A stretch of 55,111 nt of DNA. Source: Candidatus Komeilibacteria bacterium (GTDB lineage: Bacteria > Patescibacteriota > Patescibacteriia > UBA1558). The DNA lies in contig JBLYPW010000001.1 of the NCBI GenBank assembly GCA_048538275.1, positions 431,928 through 487,038 on the forward strand. Reading direction: 5' to 3'. Positions 17,091-54,969 of the stretch are shown here, piece after piece. Each line of letters starts with the position of its first letter. The stretch's first letter is position 1. The position numbers were made by a program, and so were the translations under genes. The notes beneath the pieces were generated by a model that made no database searches, was not told the origin of the DNA, and saw nothing but the letters and a program-made list of their open reading frames with translations.

Positions 17091-17212
17091 CACCCCGTCA
17101 GCTTAAGCTAACGAGGCCCGTCACGTCAGCTTAAGCTAACGAGGCCCGTCACGTCAGCTTAAGCTAACGAGGCCCGTCACGTCAGCTTAAGCTGACGTGA
17201 CCCATCTGACGG
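17091..17212. repeat. mosaic repeat cluster 1: 28-bp tandem unit GTCAGCTTAAGCTAACGAGGCCCGTCAC x3 plus a terminal perfect palindrome
   Basis: Units at 17097-17124, 17125-17152 and 17153-17180. The array ends in GTCACGTCAGCTTAAGCTGACGTGAC. Read directly. Confidence 0.9.
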
Positions 17213-20320: not shown

Positions 20321-20758
20321 GTCCGCCCCGTCAGACGGGCCTCGTCAGCTTAAGCTGACGTGACGGGCCTCGTCAGCTTAAGCTGACGTGACGGGCTTCC
20401 CCTCGTCATTTCTACAGAGCATAAACAAGCGGAGAAGCCTCTCAACACACGACTTCACAATAGACTTCTCCGCTTGTCCGCACTGCGTTTGGACAGCGGT
20501 CGAAGTGACAATGTATTGTACTTAGTTTTGTTATTCTGACCACAGCTCTCTATCCTTTCCCCTCGTCACTTCGACCGAACCATCATACCCCCTCCGTCAT
20601 TTCGCCAGAGTCATCATACTCCCTCCGTCACTTAGACTGAGTCATCATAACCCACCCGTCACTTCGACCGTAGTCAACATACCCCCTCCGTCACTTCGAC
20701 CGTAGTCAACATACCCCCTCCGTCACTTCGACCGAGCGCAAGCGAGCGGAGAAGTCTA
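20321..20758. repeat. mosaic repeat cluster 2
   Basis: Two 28-bp palindrome units (20337-20392), a degenerate Y/X hairpin composite (about 20402-20510) and module T. Then five to six tandem 30-32-bp V units (20559-20735), ending in module Y (20721-20757). Confidence 0.9.
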
Positions 20759-20806
20759 TATTATGCAAACGATAGTTAAACAAGCAACTATTACATAAAA
20801 CATTTA

Positions 20807-21115
20807 CTATAATTCATTGAATAAATCATGCCAATTAGGGTTAACACTATTAATAAGTTTAACTTTTTTACTCCTCCTCCATCTTTTAATTTGCTTCTCT
20901 CTACTTATTGCTTCCATCGGGGATTCAAATATTTCATAGTATAGTAGAATATGACAATGATACTTTTTAGTAAAACCATCATTAACGTTATTTCTATGCT
21001 CCATTACACGTCTAATTATATTGTTTGTCATGCCAATACATAATACCCTTGATTTGCTTGACATGATATAAACATAATACAACTTATAATAATCCCTATA
21101 TTTTTTCCAAAACAT
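20807..21115 (-). CDS. GIY-YIG nuclease family protein (URI domain, COG2827-like)
   Basis: 102 aa with YYVYIMSSKSRVLCIGMTNNIIRRVMEH and REKQIKRWRRSKK, both typical of small GIY-YIG proteins. Confidence 0.8.
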   Translation of the reverse strand: MFWKKYRDYYKLYYVYIMSSKSRVLCIGMTNNIIRRVMEHRNNVNDGFTKKYHCHILLYYEIFESPMEAISREKQIKRWRRSKKVKLINSVNPNWHDLFNEL

Positions 21116-21143
21116 TTTAATTTATATTATTTATATTACAGTA

Positions 21144-21340
21144 GTATTGCTATTAGACTTCTCCGCTCGTCCGCACTGCGTTTGGACATCGGTCGAAGTG
21201 ACGGGGAGGTGTGATGAGCAGACAAAGGCACCGTCAGACGCCGCAAGCCCCGTCAGACGAAACAGATCTAGTCTGACGGGGCAAGCCCCGTCAGACGCCG
21301 CAAGCCCCGTCAGACGAAACAGATCTAGTCTGACGGGGCA
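21144..21340. repeat. mosaic repeat cluster 3
   Basis: Module X at 21155-21203, followed by a 57-bp tandem duplication (period 21231 to 21288). Each copy contains a CCCCGTCAGAC-12 nt-GTCTGACGGGG hairpin. Confidence 0.9.
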
Positions 21341-21363
21341 AGCTCCTTTTGCTCCCCGCCCGA

Positions 21364-22938: not shown

Positions 22939-23122
22939 AGTAGCAATAGAGTACCAATTCGCCAAAAAAATGTCAACTGCCCATGCCCCAAATATTAAAA
23001 TCCCCACTACCTAAGAATTCTTATAGGTATTGTCATTGCCAATTCTAATAGAATCAACTAGCTTCTCAGCCTTAGTATTGAGCAAATAACTTGGCAATCG
23101 TATTTATATCGCCTGTATAATA

Positions 23123-23352
23123 TAGACTTCTCCGCTCGCTTACGCTCGGTCGAAGTGACGGAGGGGGTATGATGGCTCGGTCGAAGTGACGAGAGGGAAG
23201 GATAGAGGGCTGTGATCACAATAACAAAACTAAGCACAACCCATGGTCACTTCGACCGATGTCCAAACGCAGTGCGGACGAGCGGAGAAGTCTATTGTGG
23301 ATTCGTGCGCTGAAAGACTATTCTGCTCGTTTATGCTCTATCAATGTGATGG
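23123..23352. repeat. mosaic repeat cluster 4
   Basis: Module Y (23124-23160, +), module T (inverted), module X (23246-23294, inverted) and a degenerate Y arm. Confidence 0.9.
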
Positions 23353-23994: not shown

Positions 23995-24258
23995 CGCCCC
24001 GTCAGACTAGATCTATTTCGTCTGACGAGGCTCACCCCGTAAGACTGAGCCTGCCACGTCTGACGGGGCTTGCGGCGTCTGACGGTGCCTTTATCTGCTT
24101 ATAACACTTCCTCGTCACTTCGACCGATGTCCAAACGCAGTGCGGACGAGCGGAGAAGTCTATTGTGGATTCGTGTGTTGAGAGACTATTCTGCTCGTTT
24201 ATGCTCTATCGAAGTGACGAGGGGGAAGGATACAGAGCTGTGGTCAGAATAACAAAAC
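23995..24258. repeat. mosaic repeat cluster 5
   Basis: GTCAGAC/GTCTGAC hairpins, module X (24113-24161, inverted), a degenerate Y arm and module T (inverted). Abuts the higA stop codon. Confidence 0.9.
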
Positions 24259-26097: not shown

Positions 26098-26577
26098 CTA
26101 GTCAATTAGAGTATATTCCTCAAAATATTTATCTGGGATCATTTGGACCCGTGCTGCCCAGTCAGCACCATAAGTAGCCCTGACCGCGGCCGGCGATCGC
26201 AACCAAGTCAACTCCCCTACTGCGGTTACGGCATAAACCTTATCCCCGATGATCTTTTTTACCAAGGTACCGACCGGCAAAAACATATCCCGACCATTAG
26301 CAAAATTATTCATATCTCTGCCGTCAATTTTATCCACAACAATATCATCACCAGCATAATAATGAAACATAGCTTGATTGTACAACCAATATCTGGTCTG
26401 CTCTTTTACCAGATACACTCGATCACTAGAATCTGCTTTTATATATTTATCTGTTGAAACTGTTCTTAGCAGTACAACTTCTTCACCATTTATTAATGTT
26501 GGCTCAGCACCGACCATTGCCTGCGCCATTGACGGTAAGAAAATAACTAATAGTAATAATAAAATATTTTTGCGCAT
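26098..26577 (-). CDS. small secreted protein with surface-repeat domain
   Basis: Signal peptide MRKNILLLLLVIFLPSMAQA. The C-terminus VYAVTAVGELTWLRSPAAVRATYGADWAARV parallels VYAVEPSGNLRWIPSEEIAAGLYGADWASRV in the 1353-aa protein. Confidence 0.6.
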   Translation of the reverse strand: MRKNILLLLLVIFLPSMAQAMVGAEPTLINGEEVVLLRTVSTDKYIKADSSDRVYLVKEQTRYWLYNQAMFHYYAGDDIVVDKIDGRDMNNFANGRDMFLPVGTLVKKIIGDKVYAVTAVGELTWLRSPAAVRATYGADWAARVQMIPDKYFEEYTLID

Positions 26578-26614
26578 GTTTTTTTTCTGACTTAAATAAT
26601 AATGCGAATATTAT
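26504..26614. repeat. 111-bp direct repeat, copy 1
   Basis: Identical to 27326-27436. Covers part of the -10 region, the 5' UTR, the start codon and the first 24 codons of 26098-26577. Confidence 0.9.
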
Positions 26615-26754
26615 ATAGTTTTTTTAAATATTTTCAACTCCCTATTGACTATTATCCATCCACATGCTACCATTAAATCGTGATATTTGTGAGGACTTTA
26701 GTTCTCCCGCGGTTAAACACATAAAACCGCAGACAAATATCATGCAAAAAAAGT

Positions 26755-27309: not shown

Positions 27310-27399
27310 TCAACTCATAACCTCTTCAGCACCGACCATTGCCTGCGCCATTGACGGTAAGAAAATAACTAATAGTAATAATAAAATATTTTTGCGCAT
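27310..27399 (-). pseudogene. orphan 5' fragment (signal peptide only) of the 26098-26577 gene
   Basis: Encodes MRKNILLLLLVIFLPSMAQAMVGAE, then EVMS and TGA. Lies within repeat copy 2. Confidence 0.7.
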
Positions 27400-27436
27400 G
27401 TTTTTTTTCTGACTTAAATAATAATGCGAATATTAT
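27326..27436. repeat. 111-bp direct repeat, copy 2
   Basis: Identical to 26504-26614. Confidence 0.9.
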
Positions 27437-27525
27437 GTAGTGTTTTTTAATTTATCACACCCAAAAACCGACATCTGTACGATGCCGGTTGGCAAAAATT
27501 TGTATAAACACTAATAGCTGATTAG

Positions 27526-33984: not shown

Positions 33985-34370
33985 CGTCATAGTATCCTTG
34001 TGATACAGGGCTTTATCCTTTCCCTTGTCATTTCGACCGTAGTCACGCCCAGTCAGACGTGGCCTCGTCAGCTTAAGCTGACGTGACGGGCTTCCTCTCG
34101 TCATTTCGACCCAACTATCATTTTCTTTGTCACTTCGACCGAGCGCAAGCGAGCGGAGAAGTCTCTCAGCACACCACTCCCTTATAGACTTCTCCACTCG
34201 TCCGCACTGCGTTTGGACATCGGTCGAAGTGACGAGGAAGTGTTATAAGCAGATAAAGACCCTGTCAGACGTGGCAGGCTCAGTCTGACGGGGTGAGCCT
34301 CGTCAGACGGCAAACATCTAGTCTGACGGGGCGAGCCTCGTCAGACGGCATATATCTAGTCTGACGGGGG
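33985..34370. repeat. mosaic repeat cluster 6
   Basis: Module T, palindrome Z (about 34062-34091), a Y/X hairpin composite (34128-34234) and three GTCAGAC-12 nt-GTCTGAC hairpins (34263-34366). Confidence 0.9.
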
Positions 34371-35294: not shown

Positions 35295-35596
35295 CCCCGT
35301 CACTTTGACTGTAATTCATGGGTATTGCTATTAGACTTCTCCGCTCGTCCGCACTGCGTTTGGACATCGGTCGAAGTGACGAGGAAGTGTGATGAGCAGA
35401 GACAAAGGACCCTGTCAGACGGGCCTCGTCAGCTTAAGCTGACGTGACGGGCTTCCCCTCGTCATTTCAACCGAGCAATCATACCTCCCCCACCGTCACT
35501 TCGACCGAGCGCAAGCGAGCGGAGAAATCTCTCACCACACCACTCCCTTATAGACTCTCCACTCGTCCTCACTGTGTTTGACAGCGGTCAAAGTGA
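35295..35596. repeat. mosaic repeat cluster 7 (left arm of the ~290-bp inverted repeat)
   Basis: X (35333-35381), linker, palindrome Z (about 35420-35452) and a Y/X composite (35494-35596). 35295-35587 is the reverse complement of 40819-41108. Confidence 0.9.
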
Positions 35597-35662
35597 CAAG
35601 TCTATTATTGTGTCGTCTTGTTATTATTAACCCTCTATTACTCCCTTGTTGATTATAATCAT

Positions 35663-35962
35663 ATGATCAGAATAACCGTTTCCGAGGCTAGCCGCTTATT
35701 TGGCGTTTCTACCAAAACTATAAGGCAAGCCATTAAAAATCAAGAAATAAAATATGTCGTAGTCAGAGGTCGCTATAAGCTCCAATTTGAGTCGGTCTTA
35801 AAGTGGTCACAAATCAGTACCCGACGCCGTAATCAGCGTGACCGACAAGGCATTGGTCGCTATGTTGATCAGTGGAATATTTCCAATCGCAAATATTCTC
35901 CCCGACCAGAATATATCAAACAGGATGAAACCGGCCACTACTTTGTTGACAAAAATAAATAA
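35663..35962 (+). CDS. excisionase/MerR-type helix-turn-helix DNA-binding protein
   Basis: MIRITVSEASRLFGVSTKTIRQAIKNQEIKYVVVRGRYK resembles excisionase-family HTH proteins. ATG at 35663 is preferred over the TTG at 35618. Confidence 0.55.
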   Translation: MIRITVSEASRLFGVSTKTIRQAIKNQEIKYVVVRGRYKLQFESVLKWSQISTRRRNQRDRQGIGRYVDQWNISNRKYSPRPEYIKQDETGHYFVDKNK

Positions 35963-35999
35963 TTTGACAAGACAATAAAATTGCTGCTATATTAATATC

Positions 36000-36176
36000 A
36001 CCCTAAAAACCCGTCCTGTGACCTGCCTGTTATAATACACTCTACCTAATTTGGTAAAAGCGTATACTCCACATAACTTGTCAGGTCACTACCCGGTAGC
36101 TACAGAATGTAACCATTCTGTGCACTCCCTACCCCCCGGCTTATAGCTTAAAGCAGCTGGGGGGTTTATTTATTTT
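36000..36176 (+). ncRNA. candidate structured small RNA A
   Basis: TTGACA 35964-35969, 18 nt, TATATT 35988-35993. Internal stems GTGACCTG/CAGGTCAC and ACAGAATG-TAAC-CATTCTGT. CCCCCC...GGGGGG hairpin plus T-rich tail (36132-36176). No ORF. Confidence 0.45.
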
Positions 36177-36223
36177 GACATAATAACTATTGACACTTTA
36201 CCCACTATCTGCTATGCTTGCAG

Positions 36224-36328
36224 TGCTGTCCTGCACAAGCGCCTAGACTAGAAGAGATAGAAAATCTTCAAATAGGCGAAGCAAACAAAAGGGGCCCCAA
36301 TCTTATGTCCAAAAAAGGGGCCCTTTTT
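36224..36328 (+). ncRNA. candidate structured small RNA B
   Basis: TTGACA 36190-36195, 17 nt, TATGCT 36213-36218. Stems TGCAG/CTGCA and CGCCT/AGGCG. GGGCCCC...GGGGCCC hairpin followed by TTTTT (36291-36328). Confidence 0.4.
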
Positions 36329-36364
36329 ACTTGACAAATATATAAGCTTTTTATACTATTGAAT

Positions 36365-36548
36365 CATAACCTAGGGTTGTATAAACAACTACTAGGTGAA
36401 AAAAATGGCGCCCGTGTTATTTAATATATCAATGCATAAATCCTCCTCACGGTTAAGCAAAGATACATAGCGGGCGCCATTACTTCACATCTTATGACCT
36501 TAATTTTTTGAGATGTGCTGACTGACTGCTTAAAGTGGTCAGTTTTTT
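36365..36548 (+). ncRNA. candidate structured small RNA C (contains a 21-codon sORF)
   Basis: TTGACA 36331-36336 with TATACT/TACTAT at 15-17 nt. 10-bp inverted repeat ATGGCGCCCG/CGGGCGCCAT (36405-36414, 36471-36480). Terminator ACTGACTGC-TTAAA-GTGGTCAGT plus T6 (36521-36548). Confidence 0.45.
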
Positions 36549-36596
36549 GTGGAAAAAAAGCTTGACAATAATAACATGATAATTTAATATTATTTG

Positions 36597-36772
36597 CATA
36601 TGGGCCTGTAAAGCCTATGACATAGCGCAAGGATAGCGCAATCATACAACGGGTATTTACCCGTAAAACTGCTATAAAGCAGTCCTGTATGGTCGCCTGG
36701 ATACGTGGGATTATCCTGAGCAACCAACACAATTGAAAAGGGCGGGACAGCAATGTTACTGCCCTTTTTTAT
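36597..36772 (+). ncRNA. candidate structured small RNA D
   Basis: TTGACA 36562-36567, 17 nt, TAATAT 36585-36590. Hairpins ACGGGT/ACCCGT and CTGCT-ATAA-AGCAG. GGGC...GCCC terminator plus T6 (36737-36772). Confidence 0.45.
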
Positions 36773-36827
36773 TTCCAGTGAACATTTATACAAAACAACC
36801 TGTCTTTAAAATAGACGGGTTTTATAT

Positions 36828-37706
36828 TTACTTGCGATTGAGACTGGCAAGCCATTGCTTTGGATTATCTTTTATATATTCCCTAATTCTTTCCAAATCA
36901 TCATCGTCTCCTATGATGTGTTCATAATAATTTCTTTGCCAAGCAAAATCACACAAACCCAATTTGTGTATTGCTTTGGATGTCATCATTTTATATTTGC
37001 CAATTAACATGGGTAATACCATACGTCGCCTATTTTTTATCATTTTTTTACGTAGAGGCAATTCATGAATTGCCTCTACGGGTTGGGGCATCATACGTTC
37101 ACACCCATCATGAATTGCCTCTACGGATGACATAATATGGTTTGGCGCATCATGAATTGCCTCTACGGGTTGGGGCATCATACGTTCACACCCACCATGA
37201 ATTGCCTCTACGGGTTGGGGCATCATACGTTCACACCCATCATGAATTGCCTCTACGGATGACATAATATGGTTTGGCGCATCATGAATTGCCTCTACGG
37301 GTTGGGGCATCATACGTTCACGCCCATCATGAATTCCCTCTACGGATGACATAATATGTTCACGCCCACCATGAATTGCCTCTACGGATGACATAATATG
37401 GTTTGGCGCACCATGAATTGATTTTAAAATCTGAATAATGAGATGGATATGATTAGGCATGATAATATATTCATCTAATTTTACATGCTTGAATTGCGCG
37501 CTTAATTTCTCTAAATTATCCTGTGCAATCTGACCGTATCTATTTAATAACACCCTATATTGTTTTACCTTGCCAAAATATTTTCTTTTATTTTTTACAC
37601 AAATAGTAATAAAATAATATCCCGGCCTGGAATAATCATAAAACGGCAAGCGTAATGACTGCGTTCTATATTTATTTTTATACAAAGCCGATTTATATTT
37701 TGCCAT
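36828..37706 (-). CDS. IS200-like Y1 (HUH) transposase, REP-associated tyrosine transposase-like, with internal repeat expansion
   Basis: YDYSRPGYYFITICVKN N-terminus, HUH motif MPNHIHLII and catalytic-Tyr region FAWQRNYYEHII. Eight VEAIH-containing 14-15-aa repeats lie between them. Terminator hairpin at 36797-36822. Confidence 0.8.
   Translation of the reverse strand: MAKYKSALYKNKYRTQSLRLPFYDYSRPGYYFITICVKNKRKYFGKVKQYRVLLNRYGQIAQDNLEKLSAQFKHVKLDEYIIMPNHIHLIIQILKSIHGAPNHIMSSVEAIHGGREHIMSSVEGIHDGRERMMPQPVEAIHDAPNHIMSSVEAIHDGCERMMPQPVEAIHGGCERMMPQPVEAIHDAPNHIMSSVEAIHDGCERMMPQPVEAIHELPLRKKMIKNRRRMVLPMLIGKYKMMTSKAIHKLGLCDFAWQRNYYEHIIGDDDDLERIREYIKDNPKQWLASLNRK
37050..37425. repeat. in-frame 42/45-nt minisatellite inside the Y1 transposase gene, with a terminal 30-bp palindrome
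   Basis: Core GAATTGCCTCTACGG starts at 37067, 37112, 37154, 37199, 37244, 37286, 37331 (1 mismatch) and 37373, with a partial copy at 37414. Perfect palindrome CGTAGAGGCAATTCATGAATTGCCTCTACG at 37050-37079. Confidence 0.9.
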
Positions 37707-37792
37707 AAAAAAACAAAGTCTATTAACAAGACCCTGTTTTTTATTGCATAAACTTTTTTACAGAATAATCAAATAAGCAATATTTGTCAAAA

Positions 37793-39295
37793 TTATTTAA
37801 TCGCAAATATTTTTATTTTAGCCAAAGCCGCCTTGGCCAAAGCCATACGCTGTTGGCTTTGTGCATATAAAGTAAACAATCGCTGATCCTTCTTAACTGT
37901 ATCACCATACTCAACATTCAAATAAATACCGGCTAATTTATCCTTAGGCGCTCCCAAAATCCTACATAGAGTATTGATTTTTTTATTGTCTGTCAAAACA
38001 ATCTTGCCGCTCCGGGGCGCATTTATATAATGCTTAATAGCGCCAATAGTAATATCCTCCGAATCAATTTTGTGTTGTCCGCCTTGGGCTTTGATGATGG
38101 CCTGCATTTGCTGCCAAGCCGCCCCTGATGCCAAAGTCTTTTTTGCCAATGCCTGGCCCTTGCCCTTGGGCGCTTTACCGGCCAATTCTAATAGTTCTCC
38201 GGCCAATCTAACAGATTTCTTTTCTAAATCAAAGGGACGAATATCTTTTTGCTGTAATACGCGCAAAACATCGCGCGCTTCCAAAGAAGGGCCAATGCCC
38301 TGGCCGATCGGATCCAAACTCAAAGTTTTGATCACCTTAATCTTGATGCCAAATTGCCGGGCCACATATTTAAATTTTCTTTCTAACATAGCGGCTGTCT
38401 TCATATCCGGAATTTTAGCTGTCTCCCCGACAGGCATATCAATAATCAAATGATTGACCGAGGTAGCGACTTTTTTAGCCATGACCGACACTATCATTTT
38501 ATCATAAGGCTCCAAAGATAAAGGATAAGTCACTTTTAGTATCCTATCATCAGCCGGTGCCAGATTAAAACCGCCGCCCCAAACCATGCAAGCGCCGGTT
38601 TTGCGTACTATTTCTTTCATTTCAGAAGCCGAGAATGTGACCGGGGCCAATACCTCCATAGTATCTGACGTGCCGGCCGGTGAAGTAATCGCTCGTGAGG
38701 AAGTTTTTGGTATTTTTAAGCCTAGGGCAGAAATAATTGGGATAATAACCATAGTTGTTCTATTACCCGCCAAGCCGCCGACCGAATGTTTATCTACCAC
38801 CAAGCCTTTATAATGTATTGTCTCGCCCGTTTCGGCTATCGCCCGTGTCATATGAACAAGCTCCTGATTGGTATATGGATACATATAAGTCGCCGCCACA
38901 AAATAAGTGATCTCCGTATTGCTCAAACGATTATTGACTATATCGGTAATGATGGATTGCGCATCTTGCTTGGTCAAACGCTTGCCTGTCAATTTTCTTT
39001 TGATGGCCTGCACCGAAGCCGGCCTGCCCAAAACTTCTACCTCTACTATTTCATTACTTTCCACGGCATGGCGGGTCCAGACATCTTCATATAGGCCAAT
39101 TTCGCCCGGCTTGATATGTTTATCTGAAAGATTGGCTTCTACCACCACTTTTTTTCTACCGCGCCAATGTAAAGAAATTTTATCACCGGCATGAATGCCA
39201 TAATGATAAGCCTCTTCTTCATTCAATAAAGCGATTAAAACTTGGCCGGTAGAAAAATCCAACTTTTTTACCTTGAGATAATATGGTGCTGCCAT
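37793..39295 (-). CDS. deoA: AMP phosphorylase (thymidine phosphorylase family, archaeal DeoA type)
   Basis: 500 aa. Extra N-terminal domain (YYLKVKKLDFSTGQVLIALLNEEEA) and pyrimidine-nucleoside phosphorylase core (DKHSVGG, TSRAITSPAGTSD). Adjacent to RuBisCO. Confidence 0.85.
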   Translation of the reverse strand: MAAPYYLKVKKLDFSTGQVLIALLNEEEAYHYGIHAGDKISLHWRGRKKVVVEANLSDKHIKPGEIGLYEDVWTRHAVESNEIVEVEVLGRPASVQAIKRKLTGKRLTKQDAQSIITDIVNNRLSNTEITYFVAATYMYPYTNQELVHMTRAIAETGETIHYKGLVVDKHSVGGLAGNRTTMVIIPIISALGLKIPKTSSRAITSPAGTSDTMEVLAPVTFSASEMKEIVRKTGACMVWGGGFNLAPADDRILKVTYPLSLEPYDKMIVSVMAKKVATSVNHLIIDMPVGETAKIPDMKTAAMLERKFKYVARQFGIKIKVIKTLSLDPIGQGIGPSLEARDVLRVLQQKDIRPFDLEKKSVRLAGELLELAGKAPKGKGQALAKKTLASGAAWQQMQAIIKAQGGQHKIDSEDITIGAIKHYINAPRSGKIVLTDNKKINTLCRILGAPKDKLAGIYLNVEYGDTVKKDQRLFTLYAQSQQRMALAKAALAKIKIFAIK

Positions 39296-39514
39296 AAAAA
39301 AATTAATAATTAAAAATTAGAAATAATTGATAGAACAAAACTTGCTACGCCCATGCTGTGGCTGAGGCGATTTTTGCTTGTCATTTTTTGTCTCACCCTG
39401 TACAACTTACCCACTTATTGACTTATGCCGCCGCTGGCGGCATTTCGTCCAAGGCGGTGGTAAACTTAACGCTTACCAAGTAAATCAAAATATATTTCTG
39501 AAGAAAATAAATCA

Positions 39515-40783
39515 TCACTCCTGCCAATACTTCAAAGCAGTGGCTAATTCTTTATGTTCTTGAGCTGCCTTAGTCAAAGAAATACCGGCTAAAGTAGCCT
39601 GCAATGCTTGATGGGCCGCCCGAGCGCCAGCTGCTACGCCTTGCGGATGACCAAAAATACCGCCACCAAAATTGATAATCACCTCTTGCCCGATATATTT
39701 AACCACATTAGGAATCATGCCCGGCTGCAAACCACCCGAGGCCACCGGCATAACCGGTTTAATACTGCTCCAATCACTACGCAGATTATCAAAATGAGCC
39801 CAATCCTCTTTGAGAAAGTCATCCAATTCAGTTACTACTTTACTATCCCCGTCCATTTTTCCCACCACGGTACCAGTGTGTAACTCGTCAATACCAGCCA
39901 GCCGTGCTAATTTAGCGACCACCAACATGCTCATACCATGCTCTGGCAAACGAGAAAACATTGAATGTCCGGCGCGATGACCATGCATCACCAATCCTAA
40001 GTTTTCCTGACGCAAAGACTGTATTGCGCTCCATCCCATGGCAATAATATCCACCATCATACAAAATCCCCCATGAGCTTTGATATATTTAGCTCTTTTT
40101 AGAGCCTCATTATAAGGTGCGGTGATATTGATAATAGCCATTTTTTTCTGGCCGGTTTCTTTTTCTACCCGCCTGCGCATCTTCAATACCTCGCGCACTC
40201 TTTCTCGGAAATGATTGAAATCCTGATCAGTTAGATTTTCATCATCTTTGACGACATCAACACCGTTTTTCCAAAGCTGATAACAAGCATTGGCGTGTTG
40301 CTTGGCGGTCAGACCAACCTTAGGCTTGACGATAGATCCTACTAAAGGCCGCCCCTGAATATTCAGTAATCTACGTAAGCCATCAATACCAAATCTTGGG
40401 CCGGGCATACTTTTTATATAGCTTTTGGGAAACTCTATATCTTCCAAACGTAAATGCTCCACTACTTTCATGGAAAATATATTACCAGCAATACTGGATA
40501 ATAACTGAGGAATATTACCCTCTTCAAATAAAGCTAAAGGATAGGCTATTTTTACCATATGCTTGCGTCGGTCTTCCCCAATAATCTTAGGTGCCAATTT
40601 TTTATACTGCGCTTTTGATAACCTAGCAATCTTTGTCCAGGTACCGATAGAACTTTCACCGGCAATAGCATGCACGGCCTCGCGCCACGACAAGCTAGGC
40701 GCGTCAAAATAGAATTTGGCGATAATATGCTTTTCCGGATTAAACGGCTTAGTAAATTTATAAAAATTAAATTGACTATACAT
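39515..40783 (-). CDS. rbcL: ribulose-1,5-bisphosphate carboxylase large subunit, form III / II-III-like
   Basis: 422 aa. Active-site motifs GVDVVKDDENL, MHGHRAGH and FGGGIFGHPQG. No small-subunit or Calvin-cycle genes nearby. Confidence 0.9.
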   Translation of the reverse strand: MYSQFNFYKFTKPFNPEKHIIAKFYFDAPSLSWREAVHAIAGESSIGTWTKIARLSKAQYKKLAPKIIGEDRRKHMVKIAYPLALFEEGNIPQLLSSIAGNIFSMKVVEHLRLEDIEFPKSYIKSMPGPRFGIDGLRRLLNIQGRPLVGSIVKPKVGLTAKQHANACYQLWKNGVDVVKDDENLTDQDFNHFRERVREVLKMRRRVEKETGQKKMAIINITAPYNEALKRAKYIKAHGGFCMMVDIIAMGWSAIQSLRQENLGLVMHGHRAGHSMFSRLPEHGMSMLVVAKLARLAGIDELHTGTVVGKMDGDSKVVTELDDFLKEDWAHFDNLRSDWSSIKPVMPVASGGLQPGMIPNVVKYIGQEVIINFGGGIFGHPQGVAAGARAAHQALQATLAGISLTKAAQEHKELATALKYWQE

Positions 40784-40814
40784 AATAATACTAAATATTA
40801 AAAATTAATTTACT

Positions 40815-41254
40815 TGCCCCGCTGTCAAACGCAGTGCGGATGAGTGGAGAGTCTATAAAGGAGTGGTGTGCTGAGAGACTTCTCCGCTCGCTTGCGCTCG
40901 GTCGAAGTGACGGAGGGGGTATGATGGCTTGGTTGAAATGACGAGGGGAAGCCCGTCACGTCAGCTTAAGCTGACGAGGCCCGTCTGACAGGGTCCTTTG
41001 TCTCTACTCATCACACTTCCTCGTCACTTCGACCGATGTCCAAACGCAGTGCGGACGAGCGGAGAAGTCTAATAGCAATACCCATGAATTACAGTCAAAG
41101 TGACGGGGCTTGCGGCGTCTGACGGGGCTTGCGGCGTCTGACGGTGCCCTTATCTGCTCATCACACTTCCTCGTCACTTCGACCGATGTCCAAACGCAGT
41201 GCGGACGAGCGGAGAAGTCTAATAGCAATACCCATGAATTACAGTCAAAGTGAC
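40815..41254. repeat. mosaic repeat cluster 8 (right arm of the inverted repeat plus a 98-bp tandem duplication)
   Basis: 40819-41108 is the reverse complement of 35295-35587. 41007-41104 is repeated exactly at 41157-41254. Confidence 0.9.
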
Positions 41255-42260: not shown

Positions 42261-43856
42261 TTATTTAAATTTAGTGGGTGGTGCAGACAATGCTTGATCT
42301 AAGGATATGGCTTCTTTGGGTTTGTCGGTCCTAGCTGTATCAGCATCAGCGCCAGTATTGCTTACTGGGTTGGTCATTATTGCTTCTCTAGAAATTTTAC
42401 CGGCTTTAAACAATTTCAAACAATCAGGACAAAAAATGGGACGCACGCCATCCGGCTTAAAAGGAACGGACGTTTCAATGCCGCAACGCGAACAATTGGC
42501 CTTAAATCCGGGCTTATCCTCTTTTTTATCTTTACTCTGCTGACCGCCAACAGTGGACTCGGCCGTAGAACTCCAGCGCGATATTTTATCCTCAATAATT
42601 TCTCGCTGTTTACAATATCGCTGGCGGGACACTTTAATAACTTTTTGTAAATTATCCGTCATATCATCACCGGTTAGCAAAGGCGGTAAACCCTTGGCCG
42701 AAAAAGCGGGTGAAGTCACGCCATCAATCATTAATTTATTATAAAAATGATATTTACTTAAATTTACCAGATCATTTTTATCAAATTGCGGGAAAAATTC
42801 TTTTTCTAAAAACTCAGCATCATCAGCACCAACCCGAAAACTTATCAAAGTGCCAACATTACCAACGATAGCCGCCTGTACTCTCTCATCAAGCTGCTCC
42901 CGATACTGATGGGCTAAAATCATATTCAAATGATATTTACGAGCCTCTGATAAAATTTCGGCAAAAGACTCAGTGGCAAAGTTTTGAAATTCATCAATAT
43001 ACATATAAAAATCATTGCGCTGTTGTTCGGGAATATCCACCCGACTCATGGCGGCCAGCTGTATTTTGGTAATCATCATAGCTCCCAATAAAGCAGAATT
43101 GTCCTCGCCGATACGCCCTTTTGACAAATTCAGAAGTAATATTTTCTTATTATCCATAACATCACGCAAATCAATACTTGATTTGATCTGACCAACGACA
43201 TTGCGAATCAAAAAAGATGATAAAAAAGCACCGACTTTATTCTGAATAGGAGCGATGGCTTCTACTTGAAAATTACCCTTATATTTTTCATATTCATCTA
43301 TCCAAAATGACTTTACTACCGGGTCAGTCACTTGCCCCACTACCTTGCGGCGATAATCCTGATCTACCAACATGCGCATAATGCCCAGTAAAGTAGAATC
43401 CGGAAATTCTAATAAAGCCAAAATAGCATTACGCAGTACATATTCCAAACGCGGACCCCAGGTATCAGCCCAAATTTTACGAAAAACACCAATCAAACCA
43501 GAAGCCACCAAATGTTGGTGTTCTTTATCTACTTTTTCCAAAACATTAAAAGCAAAGGGATAGTTGATATCCGCCGGATTAAAATATATCGTATCATTGA
43601 TGCGACTAGTAGGAATATAACTGACGATTTTTTCTACGGTATCGCCGTGCGGATCCACTACGGCCACTCCCCGACCCGCTTGAATATCCTGCACAATCAT
43701 ATTTTCCAGCATAGTAGACTTACCTACACCGGTTTTACCGATGAGATACATATGATTGCGTCTATCTTTGACCTTGATACCAAATTTACGCTCAATATTG
43801 CGATAATTGGTCACGCCAAAGGCGACTACTTGTTCTTCATAATTTTGATCTGTCAT
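42261..43856 (-). CDS. FtsK/HerA-superfamily ATPase (VirD4/TraG coupling-protein-like) with C-terminal zinc ribbon
   Basis: Walker A IGKTGVGKST and Walker B YMYIDEFQNF. C-terminal CSRCG...17 aa...CPDC. Confidence 0.65.
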   Translation of the reverse strand: MTDQNYEEQVVAFGVTNYRNIERKFGIKVKDRRNHMYLIGKTGVGKSTMLENMIVQDIQAGRGVAVVDPHGDTVEKIVSYIPTSRINDTIYFNPADINYPFAFNVLEKVDKEHQHLVASGLIGVFRKIWADTWGPRLEYVLRNAILALLEFPDSTLLGIMRMLVDQDYRRKVVGQVTDPVVKSFWIDEYEKYKGNFQVEAIAPIQNKVGAFLSSFLIRNVVGQIKSSIDLRDVMDNKKILLLNLSKGRIGEDNSALLGAMMITKIQLAAMSRVDIPEQQRNDFYMYIDEFQNFATESFAEILSEARKYHLNMILAHQYREQLDERVQAAIVGNVGTLISFRVGADDAEFLEKEFFPQFDKNDLVNLSKYHFYNKLMIDGVTSPAFSAKGLPPLLTGDDMTDNLQKVIKVSRQRYCKQREIIEDKISRWSSTAESTVGGQQSKDKKEDKPGFKANCSRCGIETSVPFKPDGVRPIFCPDCLKLFKAGKISREAIMTNPVSNTGADADTARTDKPKEAISLDQALSAPPTKFK

Positions 43857-54532: not shown

Positions 54533-54969
54533 AAGCCTAAGAGGGCTGATAAGCCGAATTCTGTCCCTTTATCCAAAGACAAAGGTGATGATCATCTATC
54601 TAGCCGCCACATTGCTGCGACGATCAATAGCGTTCAACCCGTCTCTGCCCAAGGCAGAGAACCTACTTGAACTTGCACCGAGTAGAAGTTTACCTAGCCG
54701 ACTATGTCACCATAATCGCTGGTGGTCTCTTACCAGCTCAACCCACAGGCCGACTGATTCCCGTCTGGGAATACCACCGTTTCACCCATCACCCAGCTGC
54801 TGTTAAGCGACTGGGCTGGTCTATTCTCTGTTGCACTTGTCCTCTATCGCTAAAAACAATAGGGTCGGTGTTACCGACTACCCACACCGTTATAAAAACG
54901 GCGCAAAAATGGTGTTCGGACTTTCCTCTCATCCTCATGAATGAGCGATCATCTTGCCCTCTTAAGCTT
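54533..54969 (-). ncRNA. rnpB: RNase P RNA, bacterial type A
   Basis: Minus strand carries GAGGAAAGTCCGAAC, GGGTGAAACGGTGG, GGTAAGAGACCACCAGC, GGTAAAC...GGTGCAAG and ACAGAATTCGGCTTATC. The 5' AAGCTTAAGAGGGC pairs with the 3' GCCCTCTTAGGCTT (P1). Upstream TTGACA (54998-55003), 18 nt, TATATT (54974-54979). T-tract after the 3' end. Confidence 0.9.

Follow-up and report, generated by a model that had tools for sequence, protein, structure and literature searches.

A probable SRM-ssn-SRM cassette in a Patescibacteria genome: a GIY-YIG gene between inverted CGTC-tagged hairpin repeats

The subject of this study is a small nuclease gene enclosed by two inverted repeats in the genome of a Candidatus Komeilibacteria bacterium (Patescibacteriota). 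We analysed 55,111 nucleotides of its contig JBLYPW010000001.1 (positions 431,928 to 487,038), hereafter the window, and all positions count from its first letter. The gene, a homolog of the ssn genes for site-specific single-stranded DNA (ssDNA) nucleases, is an open reading frame (ORF) at 20807-21115 on the minus strand that encodes a single-domain GIY-YIG protein of 102 amino acids. The repeat arm called Y (20721-20757, plus strand, 37 nt, CGTCACTTCGACCG-AGCGCAAGC-GAGCGGAGAAGTCT) lies 3' of the ORF, and the arm called X (21155-21203, minus strand, 49 nt, reading AGACTTCTCCGCTC-GTCCGCACTGCGTTTGGAC-AT-CGGTCGAAGTGACG on the plus strand) lies 5' of it, both with a short tag that points outward. 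The gap between the arms measures 397 bp (20758-21154), of which the ORF accounts for 309 bp. An earlier note on this DNA had given the coordinates and sequences of the arms and had remarked that the gene takes up nearly all of the gap; re-reading of the window sequence bears out both statements.

Apart from the loop, Y and X', the reverse complement of X, represent the same hairpin unit with a CGTC tag. It opens with a conserved 5' extension (CATCAYACCCCCTC) and the tag CGTC, continues with the left stem ACTTCGACCG, the loop, and the right stem CGGAGAAGT, and closes with a C. The stem pairs ACTTC with GAAGT and CCG with CGG around a bulge, and is followed by the tail CT. The loop has 12 nt in Y (AGCGCAAGCGAG) and 24 nt in X', where it contains an inner hairpin (GTCC AAACGCAGTGC GGAC). 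The minimum free energy fold of Y gives the expected tag and interrupted stem. Counts of repeats and of ssn genes refer to the 55-kb window, which has a single GIY-YIG gene and in which X occurs ten times (two copies degenerate) and Y six times (one degenerate). The 14-mer CGTCACTTCGACCG has 25 matches at up to 2 mismatches where 0.05 are expected, and AGACTTCTCCGCTC has 14 where 0.17 are expected. The feature is thus genuine and not a product of chance.

In the composite of Y and X, the tagged hairpin unit is paired with an inverted copy of itself, both tags pointing outward. The earlier note had counted six closely spaced pairs of this kind, about 20 nt apart, and this stands: six short modules have Y and X separated by 21 nt, with Y intact in three and degenerate in three. 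The module at 34128-34234 (plus strand, intact Y) serves as the reference for an inverted pair with outward tags. Those at 35494-35598 (plus strand, with a degenerate X) and 40806-40912 (minus strand) also have an intact Y. Degenerate Y arms are found in the module at 20404-20510 (plus strand), where a 21-nt spacer and X follow and which belongs to the same intergenic cluster as the gene, and in the modules adjoining X' at 23245-23293 and X' at 24113-24161. As ssDNA, the short module folds into a strong hairpin (-30.7 kcal/mol, z=-6.5). For three further copies of X (35333, 41022, and 41172), the partner is no more than a degenerate half-site.

The earlier note knew of no description of an association between a GIY-YIG gene and such repeats; on this point it has to be amended, since the pairing is in print under the name of Ssn. 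Chenal et al. (2025, Nat Commun, PMC11893778) define Ssn as a family of site-specific ssDNA nucleases whose genes are flanked by their cognate hairpin repeats. The repeat recognised by the nuclease is abbreviated SRM. Their model enzyme, SsnA, is a single-domain GIY-YIG protein of 94 amino acids that binds NTS, the CGTC-type repeat of Neisseria (CGTCATTCCCGCGMAVGCGGGAATCYRG), as ssDNA and cuts a few nt upstream of it, in an arrangement NTS-ssnA-NTS (PMC11893778). At least one SRM accompanies 71% of the ssnA homologs across bacteria, and 42% are flanked by SRM on both sides (PMC11893778). A search for papers on Ssn later than this one found none.

The window protein resembles this family in sequence. 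Its only Pfam domain is GIY-YIG (PF01541, residues 13-84, E=3e-12). A tblastn search of a chromosome record of N. gonorrhoeae that is mis-filed among plasmids matched a single place (E=1e-13, 84% cover), an ORF of 94 amino acids that has the residues Y6, Y17, and E64 reported for SsnA and ten NTS copies around it, on both sides. In a BLASTP comparison with this ORF the window protein reached E=1e-23, with 38% identity over 86 amino acids. For reference, homology to SsnA has been defined by E<1e-10 and a query cover of about 75% (PMC11893778). The window protein is thus single-domain, shorter than 150 amino acids, and within the threshold of homology to SsnA. Residues Y16, R36, H40, E73, and N92 are conserved in it. 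We found no specific model for it in NCBIfam, and a sequence search of the PDB returned only weak UPF0213 matches (E=1e-3 and 6.5e-3) and no Ssn structure. The arms are inverted hairpin repeats of 20-50 nt with a conserved, oriented 5' tag that recur elsewhere in the genome, as described for SRM.

The window alone leaves the link between gene and repeats unproven, because inverted repeat clusters enclose other genes of the window too, at distances in the kb range. The proof comes from other genomes. The earlier note had proposed that gene and arms form a unit, as opposed to independent neighbours, and had named homologs lacking arms as the observation that would speak against it. We made this comparison and found arms beside the homologs. 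In contexts fetched by exact look-up, CGTC- or TGTC-tagged hairpins lie beside the gene in 8 of 8 cases, with clear flanking inverted pairs in 6 of them. We then considered 66 metagenomic ssn loci with at least 200 nt on each side. In 44 of these the inverted repeat of the flanks exceeds that of 20 out of 20 shuffles, and the arms nearly always begin TGTCAT(T/C)(T/C)CGA(G/C)CG. The 13-nt motif GTCAYYYYGASCK, which is the same motif as the one called a in the window (CGTCACTTCGACCG), occurs within 200 nt on at least one flank in 59 of the 66 loci and on both flanks in 46. It points outward 114 times and inward 47 times, and its density is about tenfold higher near the gene than farther off (5.08 against 0.50 per kb). 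X' and Y of the window can be aligned, column by column, to the arms of unrelated contigs, around a variable central loop, and the distances from tag to ORF (74 and 73 nt) are similar to the medians of the metagenomic loci (89 and 69 nt).

These data also bear on the idea that the gene simply inserted into, or was taken up by, a repeat cluster that already existed and acted as an insertion hot spot, with Y and X functionally unlinked to the protein. Such an idea could draw on the low-GC accessory genes of the window (MazF-like, HigB/HTH, Fic), which also lie between repeat clusters, and on the inner flanks of Y and X, which come from different repeat subtypes. It fits poorly with homologs in unrelated genomes that have alignable arms at equal distance and in equal orientation, and with published biochemistry demonstrating that SsnA and three homologs directly recognise their flanking repeats (PMC11893778). 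We regard it as highly improbable. We conclude instead that 20721-21203 is, with high probability, an SRM-ssn-SRM cassette, that is, a gene for an Ssn-family ssDNA nuclease between inverted copies of the repeat that it recognises. It is a further member of a family whose association of gene and repeat is already known. The earlier note had nonetheless deduced the right kind of association from sequence. What goes beyond the published work (PMC11893778) is the Patescibacteria host, a repeat type outside the published pattern, a cysteine variant of the protein, and evidence on the boundaries of the cassette in relatives.

Some observations weigh against this reading. The published SRM pattern, HGTCWYN(0-2)YYVSBRHN(0-5)WNVSBRGN(0-2)RNCYNB, expected up to 500 bp 5' and 3' of the gene, has no match in the window and 9 matches at the locus of N. 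gonorrhoeae. A single X or Y folds weakly as ssDNA (z=-0.6 and -1.0), compared with z=-3.9 for the NTS of Neisseria. The copy numbers given above come from 55 kb. Finally, cleavage by the window protein is uncertain, because the Y17A mutant of SsnA, which lacks the tyrosine that is also missing here, binds without cutting. As for the first point, the pattern has no match near the gene in the closest homolog loci either. We therefore dropped it as a test of membership in this sub-clade and used the alignment of the arms instead.

The missing tyrosine deserves attention. Y16 and E73 are kept in the window protein, but the equivalent of SsnA Y17 is Cys26 (codon TGT at 21038-21040), which replaces the tyrosine of the YIG motif and gives GIY-CIG. 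This position is a tyrosine in 157 of 158 homologs (78 of 78 from databases and 79 of 80 from metagenomes). The only other cysteine is in the best JGI match, at 62% identity (L012:1486-1824), from a high-GC genome that also has tagged long-loop arms. Two diverged proteins share the cysteine, which makes a sequencing error or newly begun decay improbable, and the alignment suggests that GIY-CIG is a maintained variant. One could imagine a protein that has lost cleavage and is retained to bind hairpins, for instance to regulate or protect the repeats, or else a pseudogene in the making. The near-invariance of the tyrosine and the behaviour of Y17A, in which cleavage is abolished and binding retained (PMC11893778), would agree with that. 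The ORF is nevertheless intact, the remaining catalytic positions are all conserved, and the cysteine of L012 points to a maintained variant rather than to recent decay, such that we consider this explanation unlikely; the L012 cysteine speaks neither for nor against residual or altered catalysis. Homology to SsnA predicts that the window protein binds ssDNA and may cleave it, with the cut made uncertain by Cys26.

If the protein behaves like SsnA, it would bind the repeat unit when the tagged strand is single-stranded, as in replication, DNA uptake, or conjugative entry. The cut would then lie 5' of the tag, at a distance of a few nt. The copies of X and Y, their pairs, and the arrays of half-sites in neighbouring intergenic DNA would represent the genomic population of the recognition site. 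The window also encodes a homolog of TrwB/TraG-type coupling proteins with a treble-clef zinc finger (42261-43856, minus strand), a possible entry route of ssDNA on which an ssDNA nuclease could act.

We then turned to the origin of the cassette. The GC content of the ORF (27.8%) is well below the mean of the other ORFs of the window (38.5%, standard deviation 4.3). The best homologs of the protein have 62-64% identity and come from other organisms and phyla, the contig of L012 being GC-rich. The earlier note had suggested looking for empty sites in relatives, and these were found: syntenic Patescibacteria loci, with 45% amino acid identity in the flanking gene, have neither ssn nor such repeats. 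Between the same two flanking genes there is an AT-rich spacer of 123 nt that contains a simple hairpin in one contig (L092:9516-9638) and an unrelated ORF of 114 amino acids in another (L093:3512-4073); the corresponding stretch of the window, repeats plus ssn, measures 1150 nt. The shared gene order comprises a fn3-like protein, an S8 peptidase, GtrA, an epimerase, and glycosyltransferases. The low GC, the closest relatives in other phyla, and the absence from syntenic relatives indicate that this Patescibacteria lineage obtained the cassette by horizontal transfer. A search of viral contigs recovered only 4 ssn loci and gave no sign of a phage vehicle.

The boundaries of the cassette are visible in metagenomic relatives. 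There, cassettes of about 440-530 nt with 78-85% nucleotide identity are found between flanks that lack tblastx similarity. On the upstream side the homology sets in 1-2 nt ahead of GTCA, and on the downstream side it stops 1-8 nt past TGAC. Such cassettes with non-syntenic flanks are found at L021:1382-1832, L042:1149-1604, and L056:462-918, and in the pairs L030/L083, L068/L080, L023/L057, and L018/L074. This homology bounded by tags looks like mobility at the level of the cassette, or like transfer bounded by repeats.

How far does this support the earlier note, which had seen an autonomous element with terminal inverted repeats and miniature, internally deleted derivatives? The recurrence of arm-gene-arm cassettes in non-syntenic contexts agrees with the first part. 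The rest does not hold as well. We looked for target-site duplications at the cassette of the window and at those of relatives, and saw none. The outer flanks in the window are inverted, not direct (CATACCCCCTC|CGTCAC and GTGACG|GGGAGGTGTGATG), and the inverted repeat runs about 14 nt further out. The 21-nt loop of the short modules (CTCAGCACACCACTCCCTTAT) has no match in the interior of the cassette, and the six modules lack cassette-interior sequence, which does not fit internally deleted derivatives. The same loop sequence is absent at both junctions, and we therefore rejected the idea that the gene was inserted into the loop of a standard module. A homing nuclease, as the note had also put forward, is not supported either: the cleavage by the characterised homolog is specific for ssDNA and takes place beside a hairpin, and SsnA has no separate DNA-binding domain (PMC11893778).

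Some sequence internal to the cassette is nonetheless shared with dispersed arms. The 17-nt inner flank of Y (20758-20774, plus strand, ATATTATGCAAACGATA) matches at 14 of 17 positions beside a solo, inverted Y copy at 23124 (23107-23123). The 11-nt inner flank of X (21144-21154, plus strand, GTATTGCTATT) is common to the X copies at 35333, 41022 (minus strand), and 41172 (minus strand), where it lies at 35322, 41071, and 41221. These shared flanks, at one solo Y and three X, imply exchange between the ends of the cassette and dispersed copies, with direction and mechanism not shown. The left part of these variant-3 X copies (ACTTTGACTGTAATTCAT; 35299-35332, 41071-41105, and 41221-41254) also matches the stop region of ssn (20801-20818) at 15 of 18 positions (p about 0.012 on shuffles), which could be the relic of a deleted cassette or chance. 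We did not rely on variant-3 copies as deletion derivatives carrying the 3' end of ssn, since the comparison is post hoc and the segment resembles a degenerate a half-site.

The strongest form of mobility would make the cassette an autonomous transposon of this genome, with the GIY-YIG protein as its mobiliser and the short modules as derivatives akin to REPIN or to miniature inverted-repeat transposable elements (MITE). Inverted arms at its ends, the 78-85% identical cassettes with unrelated flanks and homology bounded by tags, the internal sequence adjoining four dispersed arm copies, and a site that is empty in syntenic relatives are what such a transposon would leave. The authors of the Ssn study drew the same analogy, writing that NTS-ssnA-NTS has the same layout as insertion sequences (IS) and raising a hypothesis of RAYT-like domestication (PMC11893778). 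Against this stand the six modules without shared internal sequence and the lack of a visible target-site duplication. There is one ssn copy in 55 kb, the nearest homolog found has 64% identity, and the catalytic tyrosine is a cysteine. The outward tags place one cleavable site on each strand, unlike in IS200/IS605, where both cuts are on one strand. The breakpoints, moreover, are known from other organisms and are equally compatible with transfer and with recombination at repeats. To our knowledge, GIY-YIG enzymes have no joining or strand-transfer activity. Overall, an autonomous transposon seems to us a doubtful description of the cassette.

In the same vein, it is conceivable, and in our estimate rather improbable, that SRM-ssn-SRM is a self-mobilising element and Ssn the missing mobiliser of repetitive extragenic palindromes (REP) tagged by CGTC, the counterpart of RAYT for those tagged by GTAG. 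Under this hypothesis the breakpoints at tags in non-syntenic relatives would be footprints of movement, the cassette of the window would have reached a Patescibacteria genome recently and then given rise to the X and Y copies, and the conserved replacement of Tyr by Cys would mark a sub-lineage with altered chemistry.

The surroundings of the cassette are dense in related repeats. A tandem array at 20559-20736 (plus strand; 5.7 copies, period 31, CCCCTC-CGTCACTTCGACCG-AGTCATCATAC) contains only the 5' half of the repeat unit, i.e., the extension, the CGTC tag, and the left stem, and lacks the right stem; its final copy merges into arm Y. On the other side, arm X is followed by a conserved right flank and then by hairpins of a second palindrome family, called Q (21204-21343, CCCGTCAGAC..GTCTGACGGG, a 57-nt unit present twice). 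This composite of X and Q recurs after the X copies at 34186, 35333, 24113 (minus strand), 41022 (minus strand), and 41172 (minus strand). Other CGTCA-tagged palindromes lie at 20327-20399, where family P (CGTCAGCTTAAGCTGACG, 2.2 copies, period 28) is joined by a Q-like site. P, often preceded by CGTCA, is found at 17096-17197, 20343-20388, 34066-34083, 35427-35444, and 40959-40976. Q is found at 21231-21343, 23998-24086, 34261-34368, and 41117-41145, and folds with -15.4 kcal/mol (z=-7.8). Both families start with CGTCA and always lie in clusters of X and Y; they may be alternative recognition sites.

Searching the window against Rfam gave no family for the repeats, the sole match being a bacterial RNase P RNA of class A (54534-54964, minus strand, 190 bits). 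A scan of genome contigs for the 19-mer loop of X returned one chance match, in a Planctomycetota metagenome-assembled genome, and a scan of metagenomes for the pattern a-N(9-21)-b' gave no match. Looking up the exact protein sequence likewise returned no record.

Repeat clusters also accompany other genes. Between 23512 and 27240, accessory genes of 24-32% GC lie between clusters of X and Y: a MazF/PemK-like toxin, a pair of helix-turn-helix (HTH) and Gp49/HigB-like proteins, a RhuM/Fic protein, and an LPD3-like ORF, the last being flanked by a 126-nt direct repeat with 98% identity (26504-26629 and 27326-27451). Farther on, two repeat clusters of 197 nt (35295-35491 and 40912-41108), 97% complementary, bracket 5.4 kb that contain an HTH gene, a RAYT-like gene, an AMP phosphorylase, and a RuBisCO of form II/III type. 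The layout of 35295-41108, repeat-gene-repeat, resembles that described around genes of Neisseria.

The RAYT-like gene is an ORF of the Y1 type with 292 amino acids (36828-37706, minus strand; NF047646, 54 bits; Pfam Y1_Tnp, E=1.3e-7). The nearest copy of X or Y is more than 1 kb away. It is interrupted in frame by eight tandem palindrome halves of GTAG type (CGTAGAGGCAATTCA / TGAATTGCCTCTACG, repeats at 37051-37386), which encode the repeated peptide ..SSVEAIH.. and whose motif is found nowhere else in the window. We considered the RAYT-like protein as the mobiliser of X and Y and rejected it, since its gene is not flanked by X or Y and has GTAG palindromes of its own. The gene fits a picture of two superfamilies, with GTAG repeats going with RAYT and CGTC repeats with Ssn.

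The value of these results lies in the confirmation and extension of the Ssn family, which gains a member in a reduced Patescibacteria genome. Since the published pattern misses this type of repeat and this sub-clade, surveys based on it will tend to under-count such systems. The comparison of relatives indicates that repeat, gene, and repeat move together as a cassette whose limits coincide exactly with the tags. This bears on the status of NTS-ssnA-NTS as a possible present or former mobile element (Chenal 2025, PMC11893778). It also bears on the question of what spreads CGTC-tagged REPs, which Di Nocera, De Gregorio, and Rocco defined and which "apparently lack a dedicated transposase" (BMC Genomics 2013, PMC3733652).

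Among known systems, the closest is that of Ssn and NTS (PMC11893778), with SsnA of N. meningitidis and the domain GIY-YIG_unchar_3 (cd10448). Both have a single-domain GIY-YIG protein of about 100 amino acids, with significant similarity to SsnA, and, on the two sides of the gene, hairpin repeats in inverted orientation with (C/T)GTCA at the start and a C following the stem. In both, the repeats occur scattered and in clusters within intergenic DNA and are also found around other genes. The differences are the Patescibacteria host, a group not mentioned in that study; the stem ACTTCGACCG/CGGAGAAGT with loops of 12 or 24 nt, where the published SRM have GC-rich stems of 7-8 bp and 4-nt loops; the nearest tags, which point outward here and inward in N. 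gonorrhoeae; and the cysteine in place of the YIG tyrosine, in a protein whose activity is a prediction. The CGTC-tagged REPs (PMC3733652) likewise have a terminal unpaired CGTC or TGTC tag beside a palindrome and form inverted dimers and intergenic clusters. However, CGTC-1 to CGTC-4 have stems of 8-9 bp starting from AT, loops of 4-5 nt, and a CCA tail, whereas the units of the window have an interrupted stem, longer loops, and a CT tail.

The system of RAYT and REPIN (REPtron) shares with the cassette a single-copy nuclease gene between inverted copies of the hairpin repeat with which the genome is populated, the joining of repeats into doublets that form long hairpins, and recognition on ssDNA. 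It differs in having an HUH/Y1 fold and a GTAG tag, instead of GIY-YIG and CGTC, and Ssn has no evidence of strand transfer; the two systems coexist in the window. Proteins of the UPF0213/YhbQ group (PDB 1ZG2, 1YWL) are alike in fold and size but lack the motifs GFTKKY and REKQIKxWRRxKK that the window protein has in common with SsnA. GIY-YIG homing endonucleases of the I-TevI type combine the nuclease with a separate DNA-binding domain and occur in introns and inteins or free-standing in phages, whereas the window protein is single-domain, encoded in intergenic DNA of a bacterial chromosome, and of a family that is rare in viral contigs. Unlike with transposons that have terminal inverted repeats and MITEs, no target-site duplications are seen at the cassette, and the six short modules do not retain its subterminal sequence.

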